Position numbers and translations under genes: made by a program | Assembly: GCA_019744975.1 (NCBI GenBank) | Contig: JAIETP010000018.1 | Location: 1,371-65,370 of the forward strand | Source: Burkholderiales bacterium | GTDB lineage: Bacteria > Pseudomonadota > Gammaproteobacteria > Burkholderiales > SG8-41 | Length of the DNA: 64,000 nucleotides | Reading direction: 5' to 3' | The notes under the pieces: model-generated | Databases searched by the model: none | Told to the model about the DNA's origin: nothing | The model's input: the letters and a program-made list of their open reading frames with translations, nothing else | Shown here: one piece after another, positions 5,970 to 58,900 of the stretch | Position numbering within the stretch: the stretch's first letter is position 1 | Layout of the letters: the number at the start of each line of letters is the position of its first letter

Positions 5970-6557
5970 GAGCATGCCCTTCTTCAGGTCGTTGTCGGCG
6001 GGTTTGTCGCCCAGCCAGACGCGCAGCAATGCGCGGTTGAAATCTTCACCGGCGATCGTGGTTTTTACCGCGCCGTTGATGGTGATCCGCGTACCGCTGC
6101 CCGGCACGCTACCTGGAAGATAGTCGATCAGGATCACGTCGCCGCGTTTCGCAATCTTCACCGCGTCGAACACCGCACGCAGTTGTTTCACCTGCGCATC
6201 CAGCTTCGCCAGCGCGTCCACGGCATTGTTGTTTTTCAATCCGTCTTCCAGCGCATCGGCAAACTGGTCGGCAGGCACATCACGCAGCATGTGCAGTTCG
6301 ACACGTTTGGCACCGGCGTCGTTGATGACGGCGCTGGCTGAGCTGGTTTTTTTCTGCACATACAGCGCGCCGACATAAACGCGGAACATGAAGCGGGTGC
6401 GCAACCCTGCGCCGTTCAGCACCAGCTCAGTACCACCATCGGTAACACGCACGCTGTCCGGCAGTTTGACACCTTCAAACTCCGCTGCGGGCACAGCGAG
6501 GGGCAGCAGCGCCAGAATAAATATCATAAGTAATTGTTTTAATTCATATTTATTCAT
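5961..6557 (-). CDS. Chalcone-isomerase-like family periplasmic protein
   Basis: Start chosen at '[26 protein letters not shown]' (signal peptide, RBS 'aagggggg'). '[21 protein letters not shown]' is typical of bacterial CHI-like proteins. Confidence 0.75.
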
Positions 6558-6596
6558 GACACCCCCCTTCCGTAAGACTGAGTTACATCGACTCAA

Positions 6597-7796
6597 TTAC
6601 ATCGCTTCAAATACGCCGGCAGCGCCCATACCAGTGCCGATGCACATGGTGACCATGCCGTATTTCTTTTTTGTGCGGCGAAGCCCGTGCAACAACGTCG
6701 CGACACGGATCGCACCGGTGGCCCCCAGCGGATGGCCCAGCGCAATCGCACCACCCAGCGGATTGACCTTCGCCGGATCCAGTCCGAGTTCGCGGATCAC
6801 CGCCAGCGACTGCGCGGCAAAGGCCTCGTTCAGTTCAATCCAGTCCAGCGCGTCCTGCGTCAGCCCCGTCTGCTGCAGCACTTTGGGAATCGCCTTCACC
6901 GGGCCGATGCCCATCACATCCGGCGGCACCCCCGCCACGGCATAACCGAGGAAACGGCCCAACGGTTGAAGGTTATAACGTTTCAGTGCGGCTTCACTCA
7001 TCAACACCACGGCACCGGCGCCGTCCGACATTTGCGAGCTGTTGCCCGCGGTGACGCTGCCCTTTGCAGCGAAGGCCGGTTTCAGTTTGGCCAGGCCTTC
7101 AGGAGAGGTCTCGCGGCGCGGGCCTTCATCCTCGGTAGCCTGCCGGGTTTTGACCCTGATTTCGCGCGCGGCAAGGTCGGGCAGGTGTTCATTGATGGTG
7201 TACGGACTCATTTCCGCCTTGAATTCGCCGCTGTCGATGGCACGCAATGCACGGCGATGGCTTTCCGCGGCGAACAGGTCCTGATCCTCGCGGCTGACTT
7301 TCCAGCGCTCGGCGACGCGTTCTGCGGTGATGCCCATGCCATAAGCAATCGCAAAATTTGCGTCTTTCTCGAATATCGCCGGACTGAAGGTCGGCTTGTT
7401 GCCGCCCATCGGCACCATGCTCATGCTTTCGGTGCCGGCGGCGATCATCACGTCGGCTTCGCCCAGGCGGATCCGCGCCGCGGCATCAGCCACGGCCTGT
7501 ACGCCGGAGGAACAGAAACGGTTGATGGTCAGGCCCGGCACGGTATCGGGGAATCCGGCGAGCAACAGGCTGATGCGCGCCACATTCATGCCCTGCTCGC
7601 CCTCGGGCATCGCGCAACCGGTGATCACATCGCCGATTTCGTTGAGGTCCAGCCCCGGACATTGCGCCACCGCGCTTTTCAGCACATGCGCCAGCAGGTC
7701 ATCGGGCCGCGTGTTTTTGTACATGCCGCGCGGCGCCTTGCCCACCGCGGAACGGGTGGCGGCGACGATGTAGGCGTCTTGTACTTGCTTTGCCAT
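6597..7796 (-). CDS. fadA: Acetyl-CoA C-acyltransferase (3-ketoacyl-CoA thiolase)
   Basis: '[12 protein letters not shown]' active-site Cys region. 'NEAFAAQ' and '[14 protein letters not shown]', 'CIGTGMG' C-terminal thiolase signatures. Start MAKQVQDAY with RBS. Confidence 0.95.
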
Positions 7797-7808
7797 GGAT
7801 AACCTCAC

Positions 7809-7964
7809 TTTACAATCGGTGAAAAGTGAACGGGTGAACGAGTGAGCCCCCTCTCCCCAACCCTCTCCCCCGGTGACGGGGGAGAGGGAGAATTTCGGGG
7901 TTACCCGTTCACCCGTTCACTTTTCACCCGTTCACGCCTCATACCAGATTCACCCGTTCACTAG
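7809..7964. repeat. Composite nested inverted-repeat element (octamer arms plus GC hairpin), copy 1, filling the gap between the fadB-like gene and fadA
   Basis: Left arm 'gtgaaaagtgaacgggtgaacgagtga' (7819-7845) is the reverse complement of 7903-7929 with 1 mismatch. Inner hairpin ccctctccccc (7861-7871) pairs with gggggagaggg (7878-7888). An extra 'cacccgttcac' lies at 7951-7961. Confidence 0.9.
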
Positions 7965-10451: not shown

Positions 10452-10611
10452 GGGGATGACACTCCTGAAAGACGCTTGCTGAAAAGCGTGCTGAAAACGT
10501 GAAATGATTCTAGCACCAGTTTGCAGCAGGCCTGTGCAGAAAGCAGGCAAAAAGCGGCGGACAAAAAAACGGGCGGCCCGCAGGCCGCCCGCTGTCGGTT
10601 GCTGCCGGTGG

Positions 10612-11898
10612 TCAGAAGTTGTAGCTCGCCTGCGCGCTCAGGATATGTACGCTGGGATCCTTGTAATTACCCACCACATTGCCCTGCCCGCCAACGCCGA
10701 GACCGCCCATACGGTTGATCGGTGCATCCTTGATGAACAGGTAGGCATAACCGAAGTCCAGTGTCAGCTGCTTCGAGGCCTGGTACTTGCCGCCGATGGC
10801 CAACCAGGTGCGGTCGTTGTCGGGCAGCGTCACGGTGCGATGCTGGTTGGTCACGGGGCTCTTGTCGTAGGCCACGCCGAGTTTCAGCATGAAATCGTTG
10901 CGCATCTGGTAATTGGCACCGACACCGATGCGGTAGGTGTCCTTGAATTCAAAATCAAAACGGGCGGTCTGGCTGCCGGCGGCACCCAATGCCCAGGTTG
11001 AACCCGCGATCACCGGCACCTGCTTGATCGTGCTCCATCGGGTCAAGGTAATGTCGCCCAGCATTTGCCATTTGGGATCCACCTGGTGCGAAATTCCCCA
11101 CGACAGGGTGTCCGGCACCCTGGCGGTCGCGCTGATCGGGGTTGACGCCGTGCCAATCCCGGGAATACCTCTCACTACAGCCGTGCCCTTCAGCTCGTGT
11201 TTGATTGACGAACGGTACGCAAGCCCGATGCGGGTTGCCGGAGACAGGTTGAACATTGCACCAAGGTTGAAGCCGAAGCTGTTGTCGTCCATTTCCAGCT
11301 TGCTCTGGGCCTCGACACCGATGAATGAGGAACGGTTAACCTCTACCTCCGCATGCTGAAAACTGATACCGGCACCCAGTGAAACCACATCGTTCAACTT
11401 GTAGGCGATGCTGGGGTTGATGTCGATGGTCTTGATCTCGGCTTTCTGCGATTGGAAGCGGCCAACCCAGCCACGGTCGTAATCAGTGGCCAGGCCGAAG
11501 GGCACACTGACACCAACACCGACCCACCACTTCGGATCAATCTGCCAGGACAGATAGGCATTGGGCACCACATTCAAACCGCCGGCATCACCGCCATTGC
11601 CCGCGGGTGAGGGCAAACCACCGGGCGCCGCTGAAGCACCGGCATTGCTGAATTCGGAAGACGGCCGGATCAGGTTGATCGCGCCGGAGACCTGTCTGCC
11701 CGACAACCGCGTCATGCCGGCCGGATTGAAAAATATCGTGCTCGCGTTTTCCGCGGCCGCCGCCTGCCCGGCATAGGCATTGCCGAGGCCACTGGCGTTC
11801 TGCTCCATCAACTGGAAGCCCGAGGCTGCAGCCTGTCCAGCCATGGCAGCCAAAGCCGCAGAAACAGATAAGCCTATGATTTTATTTGAATATTTCAT
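10612..11898 (-). CDS. fadL: FadL/TodX-family outer-membrane long-chain fatty acid / hydrophobic compound channel
   Basis: Signal peptide 'MKYSNKIIGLSVSAALAAMAGQAAA'. 'SGFQLMEQNASGLGNAYAG' N-terminal hatch motif. C-terminal '..SAQASYNF'. Confidence 0.9.
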   Translation of the reverse strand: MKYSNKIIGLSVSAALAAMAGQAAASGFQLMEQNASGLGNAYAGQAAAAENASTIFFNPAGMTRLSGRQVSGAINLIRPSSEFSNAGASAAPGGLPSPAGNGGDAGGLNVVPNAYLSWQIDPKWWVGVGVSVPFGLATDYDRGWVGRFQSQKAEIKTIDINPSIAYKLNDVVSLGAGISFQHAEVEVNRSSFIGVEAQSKLEMDDNSFGFNLGAMFNLSPATRIGLAYRSSIKHELKGTAVVRGIPGIGTASTPISATARVPDTLSWGISHQVDPKWQMLGDITLTRWSTIKQVPVIAGSTWALGAAGSQTARFDFEFKDTYRIGVGANYQMRNDFMLKLGVAYDKSPVTNQHRTVTLPDNDRTWLAIGGKYQASKQLTLDFGYAYLFIKDAPINRMGGLGVGGQGNVVGNYKDPSVHILSAQASYNF

Positions 11899-12009
11899 AA
11901 CCTTCTCCTTGGTAAACGACTTGGTCGTTGGCATGGCTGTCGCGATGGTTCGCAATCTGGAAACATATTACCCGTCACTGCGCTGATTTCAATGGAAAAT
12001 GCATCGGTC

Positions 12010-12429: not shown

Positions 12430-12440
12430 TCGTCACCCCT

Positions 12441-12468: not shown

Positions 12469-12472
12469 GACC

Positions 12473-14278: not shown

Positions 14279-14301
14279 CCTGCATCCTCCTTGCCGAAGC
14301 G

Positions 14302-15123
<822 letters not shown>

Positions 15124-18432: not shown

Positions 18433-18545
18433 CGTGATACCTCCGCCGGGATAACGCGGCGCCGGACAGCAGCTAGCAGATCAGCGACGCGCGGGCCGGT
18501 TCAAAAAAACCGGTGCCATGTCTTTGAATTCGAGCATACACGCCG

Positions 18546-18563
18546 GGTTGTCTCGCGACAACC
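18546..18563. promoter_or_regulatory. 18-bp palindrome GGTTGTC-tcgc-GACAACC upstream of fadE (candidate operator)
   Basis: Perfect 7-bp arms read directly. Located about 115 bp upstream of the fadE ATG and abutting AT-rich motif copy a. Confidence 0.4.
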
Positions 18564-18598
18564 AAGATAAGTATTTGATTTTATTAATTATTTTATAC
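18564..18598 (-). repeat. AT-rich dispersed motif, copy a (core 18567-18585, reverse orientation)
   Basis: Minus strand reads 'gtataaaataattaataaaatcaaatacttatc'. Contains aATCAAatacTTA. Confidence 0.85.
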
Positions 18599-18626
18599 GG
18601 CTGCGGGTGACACTGAAATGACTCGT

Positions 18627-19094
18627 TCAGCGCTTGACCCTGGCGGTAATCATCATCAATTCGGCCAGATGTTTTTGCGCCTGCGCGATTTCTTCCGGGC
18701 TGGCCGGTCCGACCGGCTTGCCCTCGAGGCGTTTCATCGACATCGCGGCTTTGCCGGTTTTGTCGAAGGACGCCATGATCGCAACCGTTGCACCGGATTT
18801 TCCCGGTGCGGGATAACGATCCTGTTTGTAATGCAGCAAGGCGCCGGCATTGAAGAAAAATTCATTTTTCTCGATCATGCCCGCGTTTTCGGCCATTTCC
18901 TCGCGGATCATTTTTAATTCGCTGCCGCTCCAGTATGCGCCGAAGGTCGAGGACCGCGTCGCATCCTTCCATTGGTGTTCCGTACGCTCCATCGCCGGCG
19001 CCGCGGGTCTGGCGGGCGACTGCGCCGGTGCATGACCGGCAATAAAACAAAAAAATCCGGCTGCCAGGACAGGCAGCGCTTGCAAACGAATCAT
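18627..19094 (-). CDS. Hypothetical secreted protein
   Basis: ORF 18627..19115. Signal-like 'MIRLQALPVLAAGFFCFIAGHAPAQS'. No family recognised. Confidence 0.5.
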   Translation of the reverse strand: MIRLQALPVLAAGFFCFIAGHAPAQSPARPAAPAMERTEHQWKDATRSSTFGAYWSGSELKMIREEMAENAGMIEKNEFFFNAGALLHYKQDRYPAPGKSGATVAIMASFDKTGKAAMSMKRLEGKPVGPASPEEIAQAQKHLAELMMITARVKR

Positions 19095-19233
19095 CACGGG
19101 ATTATTCCAAGTCAACAGCGACCCATCGGGGAAATTTCAGATGCGACCTGCCATCTTTAGCAGAACAGGCCGCGGCCCGACAAGGCATTTTTCACACCGG
19201 AGGGCTCCGGCGCTGAAGCGCTAACGCGCCACC

Positions 19234-30876: not shown

Positions 30877-32013
30877 TCAGCTCTTGGCGGCGCGCGCCTT
30901 GGATTTGATTTCGATGCCGGCCCACTTTGCGAGATCGCGGTGGATGCGGGTGACCCGCTCGGTCTGGCCCTTGGCCGGGAACCGTTCGTAAAACCCGTCG
31001 CCCTTGAACTGGGCGCGTTGCGCCGTCCACGGCGCCAGACGGTCTTCCCAGCGCTTGATGCGGCCCTGCGCCGGTTCAGCATCCGTGCGCGCGAGGTCGG
31101 CGCACACCCGGATCATCGCCTTCAGCGCCACCGGTTTGGTGACCTGGTAGGCATCGTGTCCCCAGGCGTCGCCCCACACCTTTTGCGCCGCCTTCAGGAA
31201 ATCACGGATGATTTCGTAAAAACGCTCGCTCTCGCGATACAGGTTGCTGGTACGGCTGATCTTGCGCCAGTCGCCACTGATCCAGCGGTGCAGTTCATTG
31301 AACAACTCCGCCTGCAGGATCCACTTGTCCTTCTGGCTGCGCCCGCCCAAGCGGTTGATGCGGTAGCGCAGGGGACTGTCGCCCTCGGTGTAGAGGTCCT
31401 CCACCATGCGCGCGGCAAACCGTTTATCGGGGTCGGCCCAGGATACACGCTCGTAGAGATCGACCAGATGGCTTTTGTTGATGCGCGTCGGCGTCGAATT
31501 GATGATGACGAACATTTCCGCGGCAAAATCCTCGCTGCGGCCGTCGAAAATCACGCAGGGCACATTGATCGATGAGGCTTCGGCCGGATGTTCCTGTAAA
31601 TAGAACTTCAGTGCCGCCAGCCGGTGCTGCCCGTCGATGATCAGGTATTTCGAGGCGGGCTCGCCGAGATTGCCGATGGCGTCCTGGCCCGACAACGCGC
31701 TGAAGCGCAGTTCGTCGGAAGTGAAGAGCAGGACCGTGCCGGGAATCGGCGGTTGGTTGACCGCCATTTCGTAGAAGTTGCGCAACTGGCGCACCTTGGA
31801 TTTCGACATCTGGCGCTGAAACGCTTCATCGGTGCGTTCAACGCGTGAAATGAACTGGGCGATTTCATCATGCTGGGGCAGATTCTGCGGAGCGATTTCC
31901 TCACCATCGCCATAAAAGCGACTGATGAAGCGCACACGCTCCAGCACCTCTTTTGCCGGATAACTCGCAAAATAAAAAACACTGTCTTTTTGTCTGATGC
32001 GTGTTGCCAGCAT
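30877..32013 (-). CDS. DGQHR-domain protein (DndB-like, ParB/Srx-fold superfamily), orphan
   Basis: 'KYLIIDGQHRLAALKF' (the DGQHR motif) and 'FVIINSTPTRINKSHL'. 378 aa. No dnd/dpd/ssp partner genes nearby. Confidence 0.8.
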   Translation of the reverse strand: MLATRIRQKDSVFYFASYPAKEVLERVRFISRFYGDGEEIAPQNLPQHDEIAQFISRVERTDEAFQRQMSKSKVRQLRNFYEMAVNQPPIPGTVLLFTSDELRFSALSGQDAIGNLGEPASKYLIIDGQHRLAALKFYLQEHPAEASSINVPCVIFDGRSEDFAAEMFVIINSTPTRINKSHLVDLYERVSWADPDKRFAARMVEDLYTEGDSPLRYRINRLGGRSQKDKWILQAELFNELHRWISGDWRKISRTSNLYRESERFYEIIRDFLKAAQKVWGDAWGHDAYQVTKPVALKAMIRVCADLARTDAEPAQGRIKRWEDRLAPWTAQRAQFKGDGFYERFPAKGQTERVTRIHRDLAKWAGIEIKSKARAAKS

Positions 32014-32160
32014 GATGCCAGATCCCCTTTAGTCTTGTTGTAAGTACTTGGCGCATCGCGGAAATTCGGGTTTCCACAGGACGCCGCATGGGTTGCGACT
32101 GTCATTCTAGCGTTCGCTAATGGGGAAAAGCGAGGCTGGTCAGGCTTCGGGGCTGGTGGG

Positions 32161-32200
32161 TAAAATAATAATCAATTAAATCAAATACTTATAACAAAAT
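32161..32200 (+). repeat. AT-rich dispersed motif, copy b (core 32173-32192)
   Basis: 'taaaataataatcaattaaatcaaatacttataacaaaat'. Confidence 0.85.
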
Positions 32201-32248: not shown

Positions 32249-33403
32249 CTATGCGCGAACGAATCCGACAGGCTGAAACCGGCCGCCCAAGGCCTGTTCG
32301 CTTGATACCCCCCACCACCCGCCCAGCACGGTCGCGTAAAGATCGCGAAAATCCACGGCATGCGCGAGATTGCCGTTGCGGTCGAGGCGGTTCAGTTCCG
32401 GCGGCTTTCCGTACCAACCACCGCGCACCCGCCCGCCCATCGCAAAATGTGCACCGGCTGTGCCGTGGTCAGTACCGCCACTGCTGTTTTGCGCGGCACG
32501 GCGACCAAATTCGGAATAGGTCATCACCAGCGCGGTATCCCAGCGCCGCAACTCCAGCAGCGCCGCCTTCAACGCCACCAGCCCTCCGGCCAGCTCCTGC
32601 AGCAAACGCGCGTGCGTGACTAACTGGCCTCGATGGGTATCAAAACCACCCAGGCTGATTTTTACTGCAGCGACACCGGACTGCGCGGCGATGACTTGCG
32701 CCGCGGTGCGCACCGCGTTGCCGAACGCGCCGGCCGGAAACACAGTGCTGAAATTATGGCCCGTGGACAAACCTGCCGCGGCCTGTGCTACTTCGCGTTC
32801 AACCTTAAGAATATGCGCCAACGCACCGCCACCCGCCGCAGTGGCCGCAGGTTGCGCAAATCGAGCCTGTCGCAGGAATTGTTCCGTATTGGTGATGGCC
32901 ACCGCACGCGCGCCGCCGGCAAACGGCCCCATGGCGCCGCTGCCCACCACCACGCCGTCGGCGGCATATTCCCGCGGCGCCGGTGACGCCTTGAACGACC
33001 GGGCCAGCCAGCCGTCCTGCAGATATTCGTTGCTGCGCGACGCAGTGTCCCAGATTTCAATGGAACGGAAATGCGACAGGTTCGCATCCGGATAACCCAC
33101 GCCCTGCACAATTGCCAGTTCACCCGCCTGCCACAGCGCCAGCAAGGGCTGCAGCGCCGGATGCAGGCCGGTGGCGGCATCCAGCGCCAGCACCTGTTCG
33201 CGCGGAATCGCCAGTTGCGGCCGCAGCGCGTAATACGCCGGATCGGCAAACGGAATGATTGTGTTCAAACCGTCATTGCCGCCCTGCAGCTCGACCATCA
33301 CCAGCACATTGCCGTAACCGGTCGCGGCCTGCGCCGGAGACACCCCCCAGGCCACCGATACCGTTGCCGCGCCGGCCGTTGCCAGAAATTCGCGTCTGTT
33401 CAT
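32249..33403 (-). CDS. DUF1501-family protein (Tat-exported, sulfatase-like fold)
   Basis: Tat signal 'MNRREFLATAGAATVSVAWGVSPAQA'. 'GGFDTH', 'SEFGRR', 'GTDHG' motifs. Confidence 0.85.
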   Translation of the reverse strand: MNRREFLATAGAATVSVAWGVSPAQAATGYGNVLVMVELQGGNDGLNTIIPFADPAYYALRPQLAIPREQVLALDAATGLHPALQPLLALWQAGELAIVQGVGYPDANLSHFRSIEIWDTASRSNEYLQDGWLARSFKASPAPREYAADGVVVGSGAMGPFAGGARAVAITNTEQFLRQARFAQPAATAAGGGALAHILKVEREVAQAAAGLSTGHNFSTVFPAGAFGNAVRTAAQVIAAQSGVAAVKISLGGFDTHRGQLVTHARLLQELAGGLVALKAALLELRRWDTALVMTYSEFGRRAAQNSSGGTDHGTAGAHFAMGGRVRGGWYGKPPELNRLDRNGNLAHAVDFRDLYATVLGGWWGVSSEQALGGRFQPVGFVRA

Positions 33404-33418
33404 TTGCGGTCCTCCGCT

Positions 33419-34837
33419 TTATTTCAACTGGTAGGCGGCATCCTGCACCGCAAGTCGCAACGCAGCCAGATTCCGCCCCGGCACCACCGTCACCGGCCGC
33501 GTCGCAAACACCACACGCTGCCAGTCATCGCCCTGGCTGCCGTCGAACTGGCGAAACCAGGCGACATCATCAAACTGCAGGTCACTCATCGGACCGCCGC
33601 GCGCATTACCCGCCATCACCACCCTCTGCATCGCAGGTTCGGATTCGCTGCCGCGAAACACGTTTTCGAGGAATTGCCGGCGCGACAACAAGGTGGTCGC
33701 ATTGATCCATGCCTCACCACCGGGCCAGCCCTTGACGTTCGGCGGCGCGAACAGATCCTGGCCCAGACGTCCGACCGTCAGCACGTATGGCAGGGGATCA
33801 GCCACCGCCATGCGGAACTGGCGCAGGGTACCTACCACCAGATCAACCGGCGACTTGACCAGATTGCCGCGATAACGCGGCGCGTAAAACGCATCCGCGG
33901 TCAGCAACTCGCGCAGCGCGGCGCGGATGTCGTAAGCGCTGCTTCTGAAAACGCCGGCAATGCGCCGCACCTCAGCCACGTCGGGTTCCGTCGACACAAA
34001 CTCCCGCCATAATTTGGCGACAATGAATTCGGCGGTTTCCGGGCGCGCCAGCAGGATGCCCAGCACTGCGTTACCGTCATGCGGGCCGCTGATGCCGAGC
34101 ACGGTTTTGACGCCGTCATCGTGCAGCGCGGGGCGAAACAGGAATTCACCGGTATCGCGGTCTATGCTCCAGCCGGTGAAGGCTCGTGCCGCTTCCTTGA
34201 CATCCTGTTCGCTGTAACGTCCTTCGCCCAGTGTGAACAGCTCCATCAGCTCGCGCGCAAAATTTTCATTGGGCTGGCCCTTGCGGCTGGCCGCACCGTC
34301 CAGATAGATCAGCATCGCCGGATCTCGCGCCATGGCCTGCAGCAGTTCGCGGAAATTACCCAGCGCATGCCGGCGCAGTGTCATGTGCTGCCGGTACATC
34401 AGCTGCGGCATGCGCACCTTGCGCAGGCTGGAAGTGAAATGGTTGTGCCAGAACAGCACCATTTTTTCGGTCAACGGCGTAATCGTGGTCAGCATTTCCG
34501 CCATCCACCACATTTTCAGGTCGCGCCCCTCGCTGACCAGACGGCGCTGGTATTCCTTGCGCTCCGCGTCACTCATCAGCGCCGGGCGCTGCGGCGGTTC
34601 ATAAGGCGCCTGCGTCCAATCCGGCGCAGCTGTCGCGGGCGGCCTGTCCGTCCAGCCCAGCAAACGCGCCACCGCGGCCTCGCGCGTCAGTTGCGCGAAC
34701 TCTCTGATTTCCGGCGTGTTGGCGGCAAACCCGGTGCGGTTCAGCAGATGCCGGGCATCATCAAAACCCAGCGGACGCGCCAGCGCCGGCAAAGTCGCCA
34801 GTGCGCACAACACAACGGTGAGCGCGCGCCACAACAT
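33419..34837 (-). CDS. DUF1800-family protein
   Basis: 'HLLNRTGF', 'FWHNHF', 'ELMELFTLG' motifs typical of DUF1800. Start is either ATG 34837 or GTG 34870. Confidence 0.8.
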   Translation of the reverse strand: MLWRALTVVLCALATLPALARPLGFDDARHLLNRTGFAANTPEIREFAQLTREAAVARLLGWTDRPPATAAPDWTQAPYEPPQRPALMSDAERKEYQRRLVSEGRDLKMWWMAEMLTTITPLTEKMVLFWHNHFTSSLRKVRMPQLMYRQHMTLRRHALGNFRELLQAMARDPAMLIYLDGAASRKGQPNENFARELMELFTLGEGRYSEQDVKEAARAFTGWSIDRDTGEFLFRPALHDDGVKTVLGISGPHDGNAVLGILLARPETAEFIVAKLWREFVSTEPDVAEVRRIAGVFRSSAYDIRAALRELLTADAFYAPRYRGNLVKSPVDLVVGTLRQFRMAVADPLPYVLTVGRLGQDLFAPPNVKGWPGGEAWINATTLLSRRQFLENVFRGSESEPAMQRVVMAGNARGGPMSDLQFDDVAWFRQFDGSQGDDWQRVVFATRPVTVVPGRNLAALRLAVQDAAYQLK

Positions 34838-34844
34838 GCCGGGC

Positions 34845-35399
34845 TCAGGTTTTACCCGCAGCCTTCGCACCCTGGTGCGCCTTGCGTGCGGCGCTCATTT
34901 CTTCGCGCGACAACTGGCCGTCCTTGTTGGCATCGATCATGTCAAAATGACGCGCCAGCCGCGGCATGCCTTTTTCGGCCTCGGCGCGCGACAGGCTGCC
35001 GTTGCCGTCGGCATCACTTTTCTTGAAATGTTCAGCTGCGCGTGCCTGGTGTTCCTGGCGGCACTTTTCCGGATCAGCCTTGCAGGCTTCGCGGCGCTGC
35101 TCCATCTTCGCCTTCATCTCCTTGCACTTCTCCGGATTCTGCGCGCACATTTTTTCGCGCATCACCGCCTGCTCCTGGCGGCATTTCTCCGGGTCCGCCT
35201 TGCAGGCTTCGCGGCGCGCCTGCATCGCGGCCCTGCATTTTTCCGGGTCGGCCTTGCACATCTCACCCATCGCGCCGTGACGACCGTACGGCGGTTTGGC
35301 GCCTTCACCGGTGATGGTCGCGCCCGGCACGCCCTCGGCGGCAAAAACCGGTAACGCAATGAGCATCGAAACAAAAAGCAGTTTGTTGATTTTCATCAT
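34845..35399 (-). CDS. Periplasmic EF-hand protein with CxxxPEKC(R/K) repeats
   Basis: Signal peptide 'MMKINKLLFVSMLIALPVFA'. 3x 'CKADPEKCR' plus 'CAQNPEKCK'. Two EF loops 'DADGNGSLSRAE' and 'DANKDGQLSREE'. Confidence 0.8.
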   Translation of the reverse strand: MMKINKLLFVSMLIALPVFAAEGVPGATITGEGAKPPYGRHGAMGEMCKADPEKCRAAMQARREACKADPEKCRQEQAVMREKMCAQNPEKCKEMKAKMEQRREACKADPEKCRQEHQARAAEHFKKSDADGNGSLSRAEAEKGMPRLARHFDMIDANKDGQLSREEMSAARKAHQGAKAAGKT

Positions 35400-35423
35400 T
35401 TAATCCTTTGAAAACTGTCGGGT

Positions 35424-40525: not shown

Positions 40526-40538
40526 ATGGTTTTGCCTG

Positions 40539-40580
40539 TTATATAAATATCAATAAAATCAAATACTTATAACATAACGT
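40539..40580 (+). repeat. AT-rich dispersed motif, copy c (core 40551-40570)
   Basis: 'ttatataaatatcaataaaatcaaatacttataacataacg'. Ends about 30 nt before the transporter ATG. Confidence 0.85.
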
Positions 40581-42828: not shown

Positions 42829-42834
42829 GATTCA

Positions 42835-44156: not shown

Positions 44157-44189
44157 CAAAAGGGGCGGAAGATTCCGCCCCTTTTTTTG
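44157..44189. terminator. Bidirectional intrinsic terminator
   Basis: aaaa-aggggcgg-aagatt-ccgcccct-ttttttt between convergent genes. Confidence 0.85.
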
Positions 44190-48249: not shown

Positions 48250-49092
48250 ATGGCCATCGACGTGATGCTCGCGGTATTGCTCGGCGCGCTGCTGCACGCC
48301 GTGTGGAACGCGATGATCCGCGGCTCGGCAGACCGCACGCTGGATACCATGCTGGTGGTTGCCGGCGCAGGCTTCATCATGATCTGCGCGCTGCCTTTTG
48401 TTCCGCTGCCCGCAGCCGCCAGCTGGCCGTACCTGATCACCTCCGGCATCATCCACGTCGCCTATTTCCTGCTGGTCGCACTGTCATACCGTCACGGCGA
48501 GTTGAGTTTTGTCTATCCGATCATGCGCGGCTCGGCACCCGCGATCTCGGCCATCGCCGCGGCATTGCTGCTCGCCGAAATACCCGCCGCCGGCGGCTGG
48601 CTGGGCGTGGCGCTGATCTGCGCCGGCGTCATGTTGCTGGCCGGTGACTCCTGGCGCAGCGGATCTTTCCATGGTCGCGCCGCATTGTTCGCCATCGGCA
48701 CCGCAGGCGTGATTGTTGTGTACACCCTCGTCGATGGCATCGGCGTGCGTTTGTCGCAACATGCGGCGAGTTATACCGGCTGGGTATTCCTGCTGACCGC
48801 GCTTCCGCTGCTGTTGATTTTCCTCGCACGTGATCGCGCAGGCACCATCACCTACCTGCAACAACACTGGCGGCGCGGACTGTTCGGCGGCGCCTGCACC
48901 CTCGCCTCGTATGCACTGGCCTTGTGGGCGATGACCCGGGCACCGATTGCGCTGGTTGCGGCGCTGCGTGAAACATCCGTGGTGTTCGCGGTGCTGATTG
49001 CCGCGATCGTGCTGCGCGAACGCATCACCCGCATCCGTTACCTGTCGATATTGATCGTCACCGCCGGCGCCGCAGCCATCAAACTGGCGTAA
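48250..49092 (+). CDS. EamA/DMT-superfamily transporter
   Basis: 10 hydrophobic segments over 280 aa, two EamA-like halves. Confidence 0.75.
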   Translation: MAIDVMLAVLLGALLHAVWNAMIRGSADRTLDTMLVVAGAGFIMICALPFVPLPAAASWPYLITSGIIHVAYFLLVALSYRHGELSFVYPIMRGSAPAISAIAAALLLAEIPAAGGWLGVALICAGVMLLAGDSWRSGSFHGRAALFAIGTAGVIVVYTLVDGIGVRLSQHAASYTGWVFLLTALPLLLIFLARDRAGTITYLQQHWRRGLFGGACTLASYALALWAMTRAPIALVAALRETSVVFAVLIAAIVLRERITRIRYLSILIVTAGAAAIKLA

Positions 49093-49100: not shown

Positions 49101-49140
49101 AAATAACAATAAGTATTTGATTTTATTGATATTTTTATAT
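49101..49140 (-). repeat. AT-rich dispersed motif, copy d (core 49109-49128, reverse orientation)
   Basis: Minus strand 'atataaaaatatcaataaaatcaaatacttattgttattt'. Lies between convergent gene ends. Confidence 0.85.
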
Positions 49141-49148
49141 CGCTCATT

Positions 49149-52477: not shown

Positions 52478-52499
52478 TGCCGCTTACTCCCTGTTGTCA

Positions 52500-52685: not shown

Positions 52686-52787
52686 GCCCTTGTCACCGCC
52701 GACGGGCGTCAAGGTCACATTGGCCTGCTCACGGTGCCGCGCACAGTGCCCGCGACTTCTCCGGGGCGGAAGCGGCGGGATGCAAAA

Positions 52788-53354
52788 TCAGCGCCCGAAC
52801 AATCCGCGCAATGCGTTCACCGCATCGATAGCCTGCTTCGCGGTATCCGGCTCTGCAGGCGCTTTGGCCGCCGGCGCCGCGGGCGCGGTTGAGGATGTTG
52901 CGGCTTCGGAGCCCGCCGCTGCGGCGCTTGCAGGCTGCGCGGGGGCAACTGCGGGAGCCGCAATCTTTTTCTGATTCATGAAATACATGATCTCCACCGA
53001 TCCATTGCTGTCATTCAGGATCGGAACACCGGCTTCACGCCTGCCCGGGCCGTTGTAATAGGCGCGCACATCGGCCATCGAAGCGCGGACCAGGTAGACA
53101 TACACCATGGGCTTGCCCTGGTTCTCCGCGGTTTTCTCGCCGGAACGCCTGCTGTCCAGTTTTGCCCCCGGGTACGGTGCGCCGCCGAGAGTGTCCGCGG
53201 AGGGCGGAGATTTGGCGATGCGCGCGGCCCAGTCACGTTCCTCTTTCGCGGATGCCACATAGTCGGCCCTTGAGAGCGGACTGGCGACCAACAAGCTCGC
53301 CGCTATGAATATCAAAGCAGCCCGTACGACTGCGCCTAGTATGATAATTTTCAA
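52788..53354 (-). CDS. Hypothetical secreted protein with Ala/Pro-rich C-terminal region
   Basis: In-frame TTG at 53354 with RBS 'agggg' gives the signal peptide 'MKIIILGAVVRAALIFIAASLLVASPLSRA'. The longest ORF starts at GTG 53405. Confidence 0.55.
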   Translation of the reverse strand: MKIIILGAVVRAALIFIAASLLVASPLSRADYVASAKEERDWAARIAKSPPSADTLGGAPYPGAKLDSRRSGEKTAENQGKPMVYVYLVRASMADVRAYYNGPGRREAGVPILNDSNGSVEIMYFMNQKKIAAPAVAPAQPASAAAAGSEAATSSTAPAAPAAKAPAEPDTAKQAIDAVNALRGLFGR

Positions 53355-53425
53355 GGCATGCCCCTGATTGTAAGTAACGTTCAATTTTTGCTTCCGAGAA
53401 AACACTTACACTGAACCCATTTTAT

Positions 53426-54616
53426 TTATTGCTTTGGTTCGACCACATACTTAAGAAAAACCGAAGCGCTACCGTCCTGACACCCCACTCCCCGCCCCTC
53501 AGCTCCAGTGACAGCAAACCCCACCCTAGCCCCTTCGTTTGCGACTTGTGTTTGAAGTAAGTTAAGCACGAGATTAGTCGCCATGGAAACGCTCACTTGA
53601 GCACCGATAACCTTTTCATTTGTTCTCGCCGCAAGCGGAATAAAAAGAACGCCATCACGAGACTCCCCGCAGCGAACATTAAAATAAGATGCGGGGATTG
53701 GTGCTGTTCGGAGTTCAAGAAGTTCTGCGTTTATCCCCGGATCACTTGCCGTATGCAATCTTAACCCCCCCGTAGCAGCCAATAAACGGCCAGCCTCACT
53801 TTGGGCAAACTTAAAAGCGTGAACAAAATAAGTATACGACTCGGCTGATCGACTTGCTGGTCTTACCATAGTGGAATGATTTGCCAGAGAGGCCCGCGGA
53901 TTTGTCGTGCAGAGAAAAGATGCGCTGTGTTGCGGAACAATTACCCTACCAGCAACCATACCCTCAACCTCATAAGCACAGAAAGACCAAATTCTCTGCG
54001 GATAACGTGTATTTGGATTTTCCGCTGTAGAAAGCCATCGCCGCGAATATGCCGCAACGTCAGATTCCCGCGCAAAGGGCTTAAGGTTATTAAATTGAGG
54101 ATTGGCACTTACTGCCGCTGCAAGGCCCGCCAAATCAGCGCCCGCCGATGGAGTCCCATAAAAGTAAATCATCGGGACCTTTGTAGCCGGTATCTGAAGC
54201 TGCGTAAGCATGTCTCGAACAATTAACCCGCCCATGCTGTGTGTCAAAAAATAAATCTTTTCATGCTCTTGAATGACACCCTGCGCGTTAAGCTCATCGG
54301 CCAGTTTTCTGGCCACCTCCTCCACGTTCTGTGCAACTCCAGTTTTTGGTGAATAAAAACTGAATACCCATACATTCGCAGAAGAAAATTGTGAATCCAA
54401 CCGTATCAAGTCCGGCCAATAAGCCCCAGTCGCCGTGTTAGTCCAAGTATCTCTTGCGTCACCAGTCACGCCGTGCACGAAAATGATTACGTTTCGACGA
54501 CTTTTATCAAACTGCACATAACTGCTCGCCCCAGCAGATTGCGCATGAACTTTCTGCACAGAACACGGCATAGTGGCCATTAAAATTGTGATGAATACGT
54601 AAATTGCACGACTCAT
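53426..54616 (-). CDS. Secreted alpha/beta-hydrolase (lipase/esterase, PGAP1/DUF676-like) with unknown C-terminal domain
   Basis: Signal 'MSRAIYVFITILMATMPCSVQKVHA'. 'VIIFVHGVTGD', nucleophile elbow 'THSMGG'. Lower-GC patch (28/60 GC in line 53941-54000). Confidence 0.7.
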   Translation of the reverse strand: MSRAIYVFITILMATMPCSVQKVHAQSAGASSYVQFDKSRRNVIIFVHGVTGDARDTWTNTATGAYWPDLIRLDSQFSSANVWVFSFYSPKTGVAQNVEEVARKLADELNAQGVIQEHEKIYFLTHSMGGLIVRDMLTQLQIPATKVPMIYFYGTPSAGADLAGLAAAVSANPQFNNLKPFARESDVAAYSRRWLSTAENPNTRYPQRIWSFCAYEVEGMVAGRVIVPQHSASFLCTTNPRASLANHSTMVRPASRSAESYTYFVHAFKFAQSEAGRLLAATGGLRLHTASDPGINAELLELRTAPIPASYFNVRCGESRDGVLFIPLAARTNEKVIGAQVSVSMATNLVLNLLQTQVANEGARVGFAVTGAEGRGVGCQDGSASVFLKYVVEPKQ

Positions 54617-54748
54617 GGATACCCTCCCCCGAGAAAGCCATTATTGCTAAGCATAATGCGAAATATAAAATATATATGCGCACACTTAATACAAATACCA
54701 TGCAATTTTTGAACAAGCCATTGATAGGAAAAAATAAATTCCGATTAG

Positions 54749-55873
54749 TTATCTCACTTCCAACCGTGCCACCACCCCATCCCGCTCATCCGTCAGCAAA
54801 TATACAAACCCGTCCGGCCCCACCCGCACATCGCGGATGCGCCCGATTACATCCTTGATCAGCCGCTCTTCGCGCAGCACCTTCTCGCCGTCGAGTTCCA
54901 GCCGCACCAGCATTTCATCCCGTAGCGCCCCGACCAGCAGATTGCCTTTCCAGTTGGGAAATTTATCGCCGGTATAGAAGGCCATGCCCGAGGGTGCGAT
55001 CGACGGCACCCAGACCTTCAGCGGCTGCTCCATGCCGGGTTTGCTGTTGCCTTCGCCGATCTTGGTGCCAAAACCGTAATTGACGCCGTAGCTGATCACC
55101 GGCCAGCCGTAGTTGCGCCCGGAACGCATCACGTTCACTTCATCACCGCCCTGCGGGCCGTGTTCGTGGGTCCACAGTTCGCCGGTCTGCGGATGCAGCG
55201 CCGCGCCCTGCATGTTGCGGTTGCCCAGCGTGAATTTTTCCGGCTTGGTACCTTTCTGTTTCGCGAAGGGATTGTCAGTCGGCACCCGGCCGTCGTCGTG
55301 CAGCCGGATCACCGAGCCGGCATGGTCGTCGAGTTTTTGCGCGCGCGGCATGTCGCCGCGGTCGCCGAGCGTGAGATACACATAACCCTTGCGATCAAAC
55401 ACGATGCGTCCGCCGAAGTGCTGGCCGCTGCGGGTTTTGGGTTCCATGCTGAACAGTACTTGCACGTTGGTCAGCCGGTAACCCTCCAGCTTGCCGCGTG
55501 CCAGCGCCGTGCCCCAGCCACCCGGGCCAGGTGCGCTGTAAGCAATATAGATCCAGCCGTTGTCTGCATACTGGGGATGCAGCACCACATCGAACAATCC
55601 GCCCTGCCCGCTGGCAACGATCTCCGGCAAACCTTCCACCGGTTTGGGATCCAGCTTGAAATCGCGGCCGACTATGCGCAGACGACCCGCGCGCTCGGTG
55701 ACCAGCATGCGGCCGTCGGGCAGGAAGGCGATGGACCAGGGATTTTCCAGGCCGCGCGTCAGTGTGACCACGCGGAAGGCGTGTTTTTCGGACTGGATGG
55801 TTTGCGCCGTGGCGGCAATCGTCCACGACAAAGTCAACAACAGAATTGCAACAGAAAGCAGACGATTTGTCAT
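54749..55873 (-). CDS. PQQ-dependent soluble sugar dehydrogenase (YliI/Asd-like beta-propeller)
   Basis: 'GLENPWSIAFLPDGRMLVTERAGRLR', 'GLFDVVLHPQY', 'HFGGRIVF', 'NYGWP'. Confidence 0.9.
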   Translation of the reverse strand: MTNRLLSVAILLLTLSWTIAATAQTIQSEKHAFRVVTLTRGLENPWSIAFLPDGRMLVTERAGRLRIVGRDFKLDPKPVEGLPEIVASGQGGLFDVVLHPQYADNGWIYIAYSAPGPGGWGTALARGKLEGYRLTNVQVLFSMEPKTRSGQHFGGRIVFDRKGYVYLTLGDRGDMPRAQKLDDHAGSVIRLHDDGRVPTDNPFAKQKGTKPEKFTLGNRNMQGAALHPQTGELWTHEHGPQGGDEVNVMRSGRNYGWPVISYGVNYGFGTKIGEGNSKPGMEQPLKVWVPSIAPSGMAFYTGDKFPNWKGNLLVGALRDEMLVRLELDGEKVLREERLIKDVIGRIRDVRVGPDGFVYLLTDERDGVVARLEVR

Positions 55874-55939
55874 GGTTTGTTCCGATAATGCAGCGAGATG
55901 CCGCGTTTATAATAGCGCCCTTTCGTAAGACGGCTTCAG

Positions 55940-58900
55940 ATGCATTCTGTTCAATTACCCGCACCGGGGCAGCGCGCAAGCACTGCACTGCTGCAGGGTT
56001 CGAGTGATGCCCCGGCGCTCGCCGCGCTGGCGGCCCGTGCACGTCCATTGCTGGTGATTACCGAGTCGGCCTGGCAGGCACAACGCCTGTTGCAGGAGAT
56101 TCCCTTCTTCGCGCCGCAGTTGCGCGTGCACCTGCTGCCCGACTGGGAAACCCTGCCCTACGACCAGTTCTCGCCGCATCATGATCTGGTGTCGGAACGG
56201 CTGGCGACGTTATGCCAGATGGTGCGCGGCGACTTCGACATCGCGCTGGTGCCGGTGACCACGGCCCTCTATCGGATGGCGCCGGTGGATTACATCACCG
56301 CCAATACCTTTTATTTCCGCCAGGGCGCAAAACTCGGCGCCGATGCGCTGCGCCATCAACTGGTGCTGGCCGGTTACAACCATGTCACCCAGGTGGTCGC
56401 GCCCGGCGAATACAGTTTCCGCGGCGGACTGATCGACCTCTATCCGATGGGCAGTCCGCTGCCCTATCGCATCGACCTGTTCGATGAGGTCATCGACTCC
56501 ATCCGCAGCTTCGACATCGACAGCCAGCGTTCGATCATCAAGGTGCCGGAAGTGCGCTTGCTGCCGGCGCGTGAATTCCCGCTGGATGCAGACGCACAGA
56601 AATATTTCCGCCAGCGTTTCCGCGAACGTTTTGAAGGGGACCCGTCGCGCAGCAAGGTCTACAAGGATATTTCGAAAGGCATCCCCACCGCGGGCATCGA
56701 ATATTTCCTGCCGCTGTTTTTTGACAACACCGCGCTGGTCACCGATTACCTGCCGAAAAACACAACACTGTGCCTGCGCCCCGGTGTCAGCGAGGCCATC
56801 GATGAATTCTGGGCCGACACGCGCGGCCGGCATGCGATGGTGCGCGGCGACCTCGCCAATCCGGTGCTGCCGCCGCAGGAATTGTTCCTGACCGAAGACG
56901 CGTTTTTCGGTGCGATCAAACCCTTTGCGCGTATCGATCTCTCTACTGCTACTGCAGCGATGGCGGGCTCACCCGCAGAGACGGCTGAAAATATCAATAA
57001 AATCAATAACTTATATGATATCTCCGCCACTGCCTCACTGCCATTGCTGAACGTCGAGCGCCGCGCCGACGATCCGCTGCACCGGCTGCGCGACTTCGTG
57101 AAGAATTTTGACGGCCGTGTGCTGGTGCTCGCCGAAAGCCCGGGCCGCCGCGAAACCATGCTCGAATATTTCGCGGAATACGATCTGAAACCCGCGCAGG
57201 CCGCTGACTATGCGCAGTTCAATGCGAGTGATGCGCCATTTGTATTAAGCGTTGCTCCATTACAAACCGGCTACATCGACACCGCTGCACGTGTCGCAGT
57301 CATCACCGAAAACGAACTCTACGCGGCACAGGTGCGCCAGCGCGCGGCGCGCGATGCCAAACGCACCGCCCCGGAAAACATGCTGCGCGACCTGTCCGAG
57401 GTCAAGATCGGCGATCCGGTGGTGCACGAAACCCACGGCATCGGTCGTTATGTCGGCCTGCAGACGCTGGACCTCGGCGAAGGAACAACTGAATTCCTGA
57501 CGCTGGAATACGCCAACAACGACAAGCTCTACGTCCCGGTCTCCAGCCTGCACCTGATCAGCCGTTACAGCGGCGCATCGGCGGAACAGGCGCCGCTCCA
57601 CCAGCTCGGCAGCGGGCAATGGGACAAGGCAAAGAAAAAAGCCGCGGCCCAGGTGCGCGATACTGCCGCCGAACTGCTCGCACTGTATGCGCAGCGCGCA
57701 GCGCGCGAGGGTTATGCCTTCAGCCTGAAACAGCACGACTACGAAGCCTTTGCCGAAGGTTTTCCGTTTGAAGAAACCCCGGACCAGGCCGCGGCAATCA
57801 CCGCCACGCTCGACGACCTCAAAAGCAGCAAACCGATGGACCGCCTGGTCTGCGGTGATGTCGGTTTCGGCAAAACCGAAGTGGCATTGCGCGCCGCTTT
57901 TGTCGCGGTCGCCGACGGCAAGCAGGTCGCCGTGCTGGTGCCGACGACGCTGCTCGCCGAGCAGCATTTCAACACCTTCTCCGACCGTTTTGCCCAGGTG
58001 CAGGATGCGTGGCCGGTCAAAATCGCCGAGTTTTCGCGTTTCCGTTCCACCAGCGAAACCAATGAAGCGTTGGCCGGCATTGCCGAGGGCCGCGTCGATA
58101 TCGCCATCGGTACGCACAAGCTGATCAGCCGTGACATCAAGTTCAAAAACCTCGGCCTTGTCATCATCGACGAGGAACACCGCTTTGGCGTGCACCAGAA
58201 GGAGCGGCTGAAGGCGCTGCGCGCCGAAGTTGATGTGCTGACACTGACCGCAACGCCGATTCCGCGCACACTGGCGATGTCGCTGGAAGGCCTGCGCGAC
58301 TTTTCGGTGATCGCCACTGCGCCGCAGCGCCGCCTCGCGATCAAGACTTTTGTTGCGCGTTTTGCCAAGTCGCTGATCCGCGAAGCGGTGCTGCGCGAAC
58401 TGAAACGCGGCGGCCAGGTGTATTTCCTGCACAACGACATCGACACCATCCGCAACATCGAGGAAGAACTGACGCGGCTGCTGCCGGAGGCGCGGGTGCG
58501 CATTGCCCACGGCCAGATGCGCGAACGTGATCTTGAACTTGCGATGCGGGATTTTTATCAGGGCCGTTTCAATGTATTGCTGTGCACCACCATCATTGAA
58601 ACCGGCATCGACATCCCCACCGCCAACACCATCATTATCAATCGCGCTGATCGTTTCGGCCTGGCGCAGCTGCACCAGTTGCGTGGCCGGGTCGGCCGTT
58701 CGCATCACCAGGCTTATGCCTATCTGCTGCTGCCCGACGAAGGCAACATCACCACGGGTGCAAAAAAACGCCTGGAAGCGATCCAGGCGATGGAGGAACT
58801 CGGTTCCGGATTCTTCCTCGCCATGCACGACCTTGAAATCCGCGGCGCCGGCGAAGTGCTGGGCGATTCACAATCGGGCGAGATGCAGGAAATCGGCTTC

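Follow-up and report, generated by a model that had tools for sequence, protein, structure and literature searches.

The 64-kb window (the whole stretch of DNA analyzed here, 64,000 nucleotides) carries a dispersed motif, a pure A/T unit of about 36 bp in a genome of 61% GC, whose copies are probably complete, high-affinity IHF-type architectural sites. Judged from sequence, they appear to be inherited vertically under selection rather than to be mobile, and they would set a bend at gene ends. Because the copies combine all of the IHF sequence features with a location in gene-end spacers and with selection across species, we read the motif as an architectural DNA site and not as a mobile element.

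A search of the window with the 20-mer core CAATAAAATCAAATACTTAT, allowing up to 3 mismatches, returned five copies, all with 2 mismatches or fewer. Two are exact (40551-40570, plus strand; 49109-49128, minus strand), two carry 1 mismatch (32173-32192, plus; 18567-18586, minus), and one carries 2 mismatches, both in or next to the four-base spacer N4 (56995-57014, plus). An earlier reading of the window, made from sequence only, had claimed five near-identical copies; all were recovered at its coordinates, and their number exceeds the composition-matched expectation of 0, as none of 100 dinucleotide-preserving shuffles of the window gave a match. The sequence-only reading had also taken 20 nt as the size of the element, which proved too short against a unit of about 36 bp: the AT runs around the strong copies extend over 18564-18599 (minus), 32160-32200 and 40537-40577 (both plus), 49101-49141 (minus), and 56988-57021 (plus). 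All five strong copies match the IHF consensus WATCAANNNNTTR, as it had stated; this consensus occurs 6 times in the window against 0.86 expected, and 5 of the 6 occurrences belong to this motif family.

Three further sites are weaker. A candidate copy at 885-918 (minus; ATCAT-ATAC-TTG) lies antisense in an amine-oxidase gene (437-1711, plus) and encodes QVYDLIEYLW. At 6524-6558 (minus), an AACAA-TTAC-TTA variant falls in the signal-peptide N terminus of a chalcone-isomerase-like gene, and at 11865-11900 (minus) an ambiguous copy encodes the N-terminal MKYSNKIIGL of a FadL-like outer-membrane protein. The variant contains the diverged sixth copy that had been proposed at a start codon (6526-6545, minus): its 16/20 match and its position at the start of the chalcone-isomerase-like gene stand, but its membership in the family is ambiguous, with a marginal HMM score (E = 0.009 for the window and 0.0012 for 736 kb). 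It may be a compositional look-alike within a signal-peptide N terminus, and the 11865 copy, in a similar position, is probably compositional as well. With 5 to 8 copies per 64 kb, the density is about 1 copy per 8 to 13 kb. The genome's principal AT islands are these copies.

The heterodimeric nucleoid protein IHF wraps some 35 bp of DNA in a U-turn bend of about 160°, and its prolines intercalate at sites 9 bp apart. Its binding sites tend to be degenerate, and predicting them is difficult. The canonical site of about 34 bp has exactly four elements, namely, a 5′ A-tract, a pair of AA steps with a spacing of 9 bp, WATCAA, and a TTR that follows WATCAA after 4 bp (PMC1874591), and the two kinks lie 9 bp apart (bioRxiv 10.1101/382655). 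The motif contains all four elements. We built a logo from 37 copies that do not exactly match the 19-mer used for searching, which is the 20-mer core without its first base; these copies were HMM detected, so the logo is partly circular. It reads, in order, A-tract, TCAAT, AAA-W-CAA, four nearly free positions, and TTA. Information is high in the A-tract (positions −8 to −3, A- or W-rich, up to 1.6 bits), in TC-AAT, AAA, and CAA, and in TTA (positions 15 to 17, 1.7 to 1.8 bits), and it is low beyond +18 and at exactly the four N positions (11 to 14; 0.2 to 0.9 bits, the lowest of the core), where the diverged copies mainly differ. CAA is nearly invariant in the wider family and AATCAA is present in all five strong copies; the T of WATCAA is T in 20 and A in 17 of the 37 diverged copies. 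The AA steps of TCAAT and TCAAA are exactly 9 bp apart and coincide with the TT and AA steps of the lambda H′ site; as in that site, 15 bp separate the start of the A-tract from ATCAA. The conserved block extends from −11 to +25, about 37 bp, which matches the length of the IHF footprint, and no conserved sequence was found outside it in the copies.

The sequence-only reading had held that 20 conserved nucleotides are more than an IHF site needs. The additional bases turn out to be the 5′ A-tract and a second AA step, 9 bp upstream of the one in ATCAA. AAT at positions 0 to 2 and a preference for ATAC in N4 go beyond what the E. coli consensus requires, and another protein, in place of IHF or besides it, could be reading the site. 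Since the A-tract and the second AA step are canonical IHF elements, and since conservation of the core across the wider family is lowest at the four N positions of WATCAANNNNTTR, an architectural element is the best reading of the motif.

The differing gene contexts that had been reported for the six copies were all confirmed. The 18567 copy lies 5 nt from the palindrome TTGTCTCGCGACAA (18548-18561), with an open reading frame (ORF) of unknown function on one side and fadE on the other; its AT run is 3′ of the stop codon of the ORF at 18627-19115, and the fadE start (18432) follows about 130 nt downstream. The 32173 copy occupies the spacer of a DndB-like gene (30877-32013, starting at 32013) and a DUF1501 gene (32249-33403, ending at 32249) and is antisense to both; it is also present in L055, a relative with about 84% nucleotide identity, and a three-gene indel lies about 60 to 100 nt away. 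The 40551 copy sits in the 75-nt spacer from the stop codon of an AMMECR1 gene (40525) to the ATG of a BT1-family transporter gene (40601), with 30 nt from the end of the core to that ATG. The 49109 copy is in the 56-nt spacer of the convergent EamA and TauD-like genes (ending at 49092 and 49149, respectively), and its AT run accounts for 41 of the 56 nt between their stop codons. Another convergent junction of the window carries a classic bidirectional hairpin terminator (44158-44185), in contrast to the EamA/TauD junction, which carries the motif alone. The 56995 copy lies in frame in mfd, where it encodes the stretch ENINKINNLYD of the D3-D4 linker, a variable segment. The window does not include the organism's IHF genes.

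Placement was surveyed in a larger set of loci, whose genes were called with a home-made, crude GC3-based caller. Copies within ORFs made up 9 of 87, compared with 77% coding sequence. Of 66 classified intergenic copies, 20 lie in convergent and 10 in divergent spacers, and 56 of the 66 touch at least one gene 3′ end; the convergent share is modestly enriched (30% of copies versus a background of 18 to 20% by the crude gene caller). In 29 of 45 cases the core follows the stop codon of a same-strand upstream gene at a distance of 2 to 21 nt, the motif is often the entire intergenic spacer and overlaps stop codons, and about half of the convergent spacers that carry it are too short for a hairpin. 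On the downstream side, 19 copies are 11 to 60 nt upstream of a same-strand start; distances of "−2" to downstream starts are probably artifacts of the ATG within CTTATG. Orientation appears to lean only mildly (the adjacent upstream gene shares the strand of the motif 45 times and lies on the other strand 26 times; in codirectional spacers, 21 sense and 15 antisense), and because this lean is small, a double-stranded DNA site fits better than an RNA signal.

The motif is multicopy in at least 28 Betaproteobacteria/Burkholderiales assemblies, and high copy number is confined mainly to one betaproteobacterial clade. GC-rich Alpha- and Gammaproteobacteria also carry the exact 19-mer pattern, which fits a factor common to all proteobacteria. 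In viral contigs the 19-mer pattern gave 44 matches, almost all in AT-rich viral genomes and hence uninformative. Orthologues of the 49109 copy were found at no fewer than 14 related metagenome loci, and in 14 TauD/EamA junctions identity was 0.88 at the 20 IHF-element positions, 0.65 at 4-fold-degenerate codon sites, and 0.48 in N4. Likewise, the A(T/A)CAA-N4-TTA of the mfd linker is kept at the DNA level in six relatives; the linker itself was aligned among partial Mfd homologues found by fragment query. That orthologues lie at the same sites, with substitutions that spare the IHF-element positions, argues for selection on vertically inherited sites and against recent insertion.

The sequence-only reading had pictured a family of miniature inserted or architectural elements, and of this pair the architectural half survives, through the four IHF elements, while insertion is not supported. 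A MITE-like element or some unknown site-specific mode of spread might be suspected from near-identical copies at unrelated loci (one of them in frame in mfd, another in the amine-oxidase gene), from the fact that relatives differ in whether they have a copy at the TauD 3′ end or in the mfd linker, and from the indel close to the 32173 copy. We nevertheless consider it highly improbable. The 36-bp unit shows no terminal inverted repeats, target-site duplications, conserved flanks, flanking palindromes, or stem-loop at the copies; a free N4 beside fixed CAA and TTA is the profile of a binding site, unlike that of recently copied DNA. Orthologous copies persist at 80 to 95% protein identity and differ by point substitutions, and the same junction and the same mfd position are occupied in many species. 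Loci with no copy directly after the TauD stop codon show a different neighbor gene, not a clean empty site, and at some of them the motif lies further along, at the EamA junction. A DNA uptake signal for natural transformation was also weighed, as the motif shares with the neisserial DUS and the Haemophilus USS a multicopy presence on both strands, at gene 3′ ends, across species, and in poorly conserved linkers. This origin seems extremely improbable: those signals occur about once per kb, the low-information four-base gap and A-tract geometry are specific to IHF, and the same 19-mer pattern recurs in unrelated classes.

Two other readings were considered. One is that the motif binds another protein, whether specific to the lineage or global, such as a different nucleoid-associated protein or a tandem-binding regulator that recognizes a direct repeat, ATCAAT-N3-ATCAAA, so that the likeness to IHF is superficial. 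Conservation is indeed strong outside the E. coli consensus (AAT at 0 to 2 and an A at the third N), A often replaces the consensus T, the two TCAA units 9 bp apart can be read as a direct repeat, and copies are concentrated in a single clade. We think this quite unlikely, as it would leave four canonical IHF elements in the register of lambda H′ as a coincidence, with TCAA units at exactly the IHF kink spacing, and the exact 19-mer extends to unrelated GC-rich proteobacterial classes. The other reading, a transcription signal (a hairpin-less terminator that is factor dependent or acts as a roadblock, an insulator, or an AT-rich promoter or UP-like element), draws on the proximity of stop codons, the convergent spacers with no room for a hairpin, the hairpin at 44158-44185 set against the motif alone at EamA/TauD, the same-strand starts downstream of 19 copies, and the more distant TauD orthologues, which carry GC-rich hairpins where this clade has the motif. 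It is very unlikely on present evidence, although it is compatible with IHF binding and does not exclude it. No hairpin was found in or beside the motif, so it does not qualify as an intrinsic (Rho-independent) terminator; the orientation bias is mild; many copies are in very short codirectional spacers, perhaps within operons; convergent copies have no downstream gene and divergent copies no adjacent gene end; and there are neither fixed −35/−10 hexamers nor a conserved transcript downstream.

Further checks were largely negative. Flanking 48-mers folded at −13.2 and −12.6 kcal/mol versus −13.1 kcal/mol for controls, with no REP palindromes, and the duplex energy of the left and right arms equaled that of shuffled sequence, with no complementarity beyond AT composition. 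Rfam 15 gave no match at the gathering threshold in the whole window. Literature searches with the sequence and its reverse complement returned only unrelated primers and eukaryotic sequences, and searching by keyword for IHF repeats in Betaproteobacteria brought up nothing relevant. Several specific candidates were rejected: an integrase/att origin for the copies that directly follow tRNA genes in other taxa (loci L004, L042, and L103; no integrase domain in ORFs within 3 kb), a sigma-54 promoter near the fadE copy (TGGCAC present but no GC at −12, judged by eye), a sigma-70 promoter (no fixed −35/−10, only weak 9/12 matches overlapping AT runs), and Hfq (ARN)n or other RNA-level readings, ruled out because both orientations occur and the triplet pattern is imperfect.

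We therefore return to IHF-type architectural sites as the preferred account. Each site is laid out as a 5′ A-tract, TCAAT, AAA-(T/A)-CAA with AA steps 9 bp apart, four loose bases, and TTA. Judged from sequence, such sites are inherited vertically in GC-rich Betaproteobacteria (Burkholderiales sensu lato), where selection holds them near one consensus. They typically begin at, or a few bases from, a stop codon in very short convergent or codirectional spacers, with a few copies tolerated in frame within variable protein linkers. Bound IHF would then put a sharp, fixed bend at gene boundaries, and that bend might conceivably serve as architectural or topological punctuation that pins supercoils or separates neighboring transcription units, as has been proposed for the E. 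coli RIB/RIP repeats. A bolder version, which we regard as tentative and on balance unlikely, is that complete IHF sites replace hairpin terminators clade-wide and act genome-wide at gene ends as hairpin-less, bidirectional insulators of transcription and supercoiling; the U-turn would lie directly on stop codons, often as the sole DNA between convergent genes, and the site might be strong enough to be retained even inside the mfd coding sequence.

A clade of uncultured, GC-rich Betaproteobacteria thus carries a near-ideal, four-element IHF-type site every 10 kb or so. If IHF binds these sites, they would form an easily mapped, natural set of fixed bends for work on the partitioning of chromosomes and transcription units by nucleoid proteins, a counterpart without REP to the RIB/RIP repeats of E. 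coli, which have long gone unexplained, and an example of a DNA-structural signal under selection inside coding sequence and over stop codons. Some contigs end at the motif, which may thus break short-read assemblies, and its AT-rich pseudo-"islands" could pass for foreign DNA.

Several known systems resemble the motif in part. DUS and USS are likewise short, found on both strands and at gene ends, shared by relatives, and tolerated in variable coding sequence, but they are about 10 times denser and follow a different sequence logic, whereas the motif has IHF geometry and a free N4. Correia elements are MITEs of about 100 to 150 bp that carry terminal inverted repeats and duplicate a TA target, and the motif has neither their size nor those features. 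These repeat-enclosed elements of neisserial genomes offer a betaproteobacterial precedent for a dispersed repeat with an IHF consensus (PMC3184786). The lambda H′ site (NC_001416), TATAAAAAAGCATTGCTTATCAATTTGTTGCA, aligns without gaps to the motif TATAAAAATATCAATAAAATCAAATACTTAT. The two share TATAAAAA, the AA/TT step, the A-tract, ATCAA, N4, and TTR in the same register. We take attP H′, the DNA of PDB 1IHF, to be the reference high-affinity IHF site; it is a single site in a recombination complex, whereas the motif is a genome-wide gene-boundary family with no integrase/att context. RIB/RIP, described where PMC3184786 cites Boccard & Prentki 1993 and Oppenheim et al. 1993 as IHF-binding repeats located where E. 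coli transcription units end, were compared by description (the RefSeq copy lists no repeats among its features, and no IHF consensus lay near REP in the first 50 kb of MG1655). Like the motif, RIB/RIP (BIME-1, REP-IHF site-REP) are dispersed, multicopy extragenic IHF-site repeats, mostly at 3′ ends or between convergent genes, with a presumed architectural or topological role. The motif differs in having no flanking GC-rich REP palindromes or stem-loop, in often forming the whole spacer and overlapping stop codons, and in extending across many betaproteobacterial species.

We searched the window for the 20-mer CAATAAAATCAAATACTTAT, allowing ≤3 mismatches, and located five copies, at 40551 (+), 49109 (-), 32173 (+), 18567 (-), and 56995 (+), compared with none in 100 dinucleotide-preserving shuffles of the window. 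The five strong copies listed in a sequence-only reading of this DNA were thus borne out, and every gene context it named for its copies was correct on re-inspection. Conservation extends past the 20-mer: the copies align as TATAAAAATAT-CAATAAAATCAAATACTTAT, followed by ~7 further A/T. Window GC content is ~61%, and the strongest AT islands of the 64 kb (25-nt stretches with ≥22 A/T) are mostly copies of this motif. A motif-unrelated AT island, TTTTTTTATAAATGTTGAAATCAAAAATATT, lies at 1820-1850 near the end of an amine-oxidase gene; together with the segment at 2001-4000, whose GC content is unusually low (0.515 versus ~0.61), it may be foreign DNA.

A small HMM yielded weak candidate copies on the minus strand at 885-918, 11865-11900, and 6524-6558, the last being the 16/20 match of the sequence-only reading. 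The candidates at 6526 and 11865 may be compositional look-alikes, with Lys/Asn/Ile-rich signal-peptide N-termini encoded there. Signal-peptide N-regions at 6527-6557 (-) and 11868-11897 (-), and one in a locus from elsewhere (L096; MNKIKYLS), are encoded by motif-resembling AT-rich DNA, which could reflect either codon-composition coincidence or dual use.

The canonical IHF site spans ~34 bp and comprises four elements: WATCAA, TTR four bases 3′ of it, two AA steps, and an A-tract of 4 to 6 A residues in the 5′ half (PMC1874591). The AA steps, nine base pairs apart, are the points of proline intercalation, and sites with all four elements are favored ~2,500-fold over random sequence (PMC1874591); the two kinks introduced by IHF are 9 bp apart (bioRxiv 10.1101/382655). 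All four elements are present in the motif. The lambda H′ site (TATAAAAAAGCATTGCTTATCAATTTGTTGCA, from NC_001416) aligns without gaps to TATAAAAATATCAATAAAATCAAATACTTAT, and the two have in common, in identical register, a leading TATAAAAA, ATCAA, and TTR. The 13-mer E. coli IHF consensus WATCAANNNNTTR matches the window 6 times, against 0.86 expected, and five of the six matches belong to the motif family. The match to IHF proposed earlier is therefore supported and sharpened. The same reading had objected that 20 conserved nucleotides exceed what an IHF site needs; this is answered because the additional conserved TCAAT provides the second AA step, located exactly 9 bp before the one in ATCAA. 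The sole match outside the family, TATCAATGGCTTG at 54714-54726 (-), is found in an AT-rich spacer that resembles a promoter region, upstream of the gene at 53426-54616 (-) and near an AT island at 54653-54677; it could be a regulatory IHF site of the ordinary kind.

We also built a logo from 37 HMM-detected copies, all of which depart from the exact search pattern; their detection by HMM makes the logo partly circular. It reads, in order, an A-tract (-8 to -3), T, C, AAT, W, AAA, W, CAA, four weak positions, TTA, and noise, with ~2 bits at AAT, 1.3 to 2 at CAA, 0.2 to 0.9 in the four-position gap, and 1.7 to 1.8 at TTA. The second W, the T of WATCAA, is A in 17 copies and T in 20. Judged by sequence, this profile is that of the E. 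coli IHF consensus; the frequent T-to-A change within WATCAA and the strong AAT lie outside it.

A scan of one genome per species with the pattern AATWAAATCAAATACTTAT returned at least 109 loci. Matches in AT-rich genomes and viral contigs were at chance level and uninformative. Among the matches listed (at least 109), ~70 were in GC-rich loci (55 to 70% GC), nearly all from MAGs labeled Betaproteobacteria or Burkholderiales; at least 28 assemblies are represented, and several of them have at least 4 to 6 matches each. Copy numbers per genome are extrapolated solely from 5 to 8 copies per 64 kb. In these Betaproteobacteria/Burkholderiales loci the A-rich left arm and AT-rich right arm are also conserved, and information above background extends from -11 to +25 and is gone beyond either edge. 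A few of the exact matches listed were in GC-rich Alpha- and Gammaproteobacteria. The exact 19-mer (the core minus its first base) starts at a tRNA CCA end in L004 (2241-2335, tRNA-Arg), L042 (611-704, tRNA-Val), and L103 (318-411, tRNA-Glu); the hosts are one alphaproteobacterium, one gammaproteobacterium, and one alphaproteobacterial MAG, and the scanned ORFs flanking these three copies contained no integrase domain. Some contigs start or stop at the motif or within ~10 nt of it, such as L190 (GCA_026125425.1, contig end) and L063 (position 1), and in L190, close to the contig end, a TAA at the edge of the motif appears to interrupt the mfd ORF. Short-read assembly may fail at the repeat and leave genes that look truncated.

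Gene context was assessed at the GC-rich loci listed with a crude GC3-based caller, so that gene calls are approximate. By these calls, 9 of 87 copies lay within ORFs, with 77% of the DNA coding. Among the 66 classifiable intergenic copies, 36 were in co-directional spacers (21 sense and 15 antisense), 20 in convergent ones, and 10 in divergent ones. Since background spacers are already 18% convergent (66% co-directional and 16% divergent), the convergent enrichment is modest. More striking is how closely the motif adjoins genes: in 29 of 45 cases, the same-strand upstream stop codon ends 2 to 21 nt ahead of the 19-mer, inside the A-rich arm or just upstream of it, and motif-bearing spacers are short. 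In the window's convergent EamA/TauD-like spacer, 41 of the 56 nt separating the stop codons belong to the motif; the same junction in L121, L123, L129, and L158 measures 42 to 70 nt from stop to stop and is essentially all motif, and in L118 and L134 the TauD frame enters the motif and terminates at a motif TAA triplet. By raw counts, the upstream gene was on the motif strand in 45 cases and on the opposite strand in 26, and co-directional spacers held 21 sense and 15 antisense copies; this lean towards sense is only mild and therefore points to a double-stranded DNA signal. Upstream of fadE, a perfect 14-bp palindrome (TTGTCTCGCGACAA, 18548-18561) is separated from the motif copy by 5 nt; it resembles a dimeric repressor operator, perhaps for a fatty-acid regulator, and is followed by a CCGGTT-N6-AACCGG stem at ~18500-18520.

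Comparison of the TauD-like protein with metagenomes gave 80 orthologous loci (60 to 93% identity). The motif follows the TauD stop codon in at least 14 loci at ~80 to 93% protein identity and also in two 71%-identity loci from genomes of roughly 50% GC. In L114 and L117 another gene now follows TauD, and the motif lies past that gene at the EamA junction; a diverged copy occupies the corresponding position in L113, and others in which another gene likewise follows TauD, such as L119 and L125, had no motif at the EamA junction. More distant TauD orthologues lack the motif, and several have GC-rich hairpins there. At the TauD-orthologue 3′ end in the more distant relatives L138, L153, L156, and L143, GC-rich tandem or inverted repeats (e.g., aggcgaa and ggaagga units) occupy the place of the AT-rich motif in the window's clade. 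Across 14 junction copies (91 pairs), the 20 IHF-element positions had an identity of 0.88 and the four N positions one of 0.48, compared with 0.65 for 4-fold codon sites in the adjacent gene. The mfd copy, located in the length-variable D3-D4 linker, is present at the DNA level in L110, L119, L131, L190, L191, and L192; A(T/A)CAA-N4-TTA is kept in 6/6 of these relatives, with drift in N4 and the arms. The copy is missing in L161 and L171 (Mfd 78 to 79% identical) and in more distant Mfd proteins. L192 (~1560-1800) carries a ~60-residue low-complexity insertion in this linker, right after the motif-encoded NINKNNEL. The 32173 copy is kept in L055, a Burkholderiales MAG locus with ~84% nucleotide identity. 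The DUF1501, DUF1800, and EF-hand genes of the window (32250-35420) are missing from the otherwise syntenic L055 (cf. 2100-2900), with the edge of this three-gene indel ~60 to 100 nt right of the 32173 copy. That copy adjoins a DndB-like/GmrSD_N-like (DGQHR-type) gene at 30877-32013 (-), possibly a defense or DNA-modification gene, whose orthologue is conserved in L055.

The sequence-only reading had suggested miniature inserted elements. Among the copies compared, neither terminal repeats, target duplications, nor clean empty sites were found, and orthologous copies are retained, which speaks against that origin. A REP-like element was ruled out because the motif flanks examined had neither hairpins nor complementarity to each other. 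The TauD/EamA junction, mfd, and L055 comparisons instead indicate, at the level of sequence, that the copies are vertically inherited sites under purifying selection.

We infer that IHF would grip these sites tightly and impose a U-turn at gene boundaries. Such a bend could pin plectonemes, keep topological domains apart, which PMC9519438 proposes as an IHF activity, or insulate neighboring transcription units. The case for insulation is circumstantial: some motif-bearing junctions are too short for a hairpin, distant TauD orthologues have hairpins where the window's clade has the motif, and a textbook bidirectional terminator (AAAAGGGGCGGAATCTTCCGCCCCTTTT, 44158-44185) occupies another convergent junction of the window. 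The motif sites may be hairpin-less boundary elements. The 44158-44185 terminator shows that ordinary hairpin terminators are also in use in this genome.

The motif sequence was not found in the literature searched for it, and no Rfam family corresponded to it. Uptake sequences have several distributional traits in common with it but differ in density and in lacking the IHF geometry. Correia elements contain an IHF site, as the motif is read to do, but are true MITEs. The nearest described elements are the E. coli RIB/RIP (BIME-1) sequences, whose IHF sites are located at transcription-unit 3′ ends (PMC3184786) and sit between REP palindromes, whereas the motif has no such palindromes. It thus appears to be a free-standing, clade-wide IHF-type extragenic repeat, distinct from REP-embedded IHF sites.
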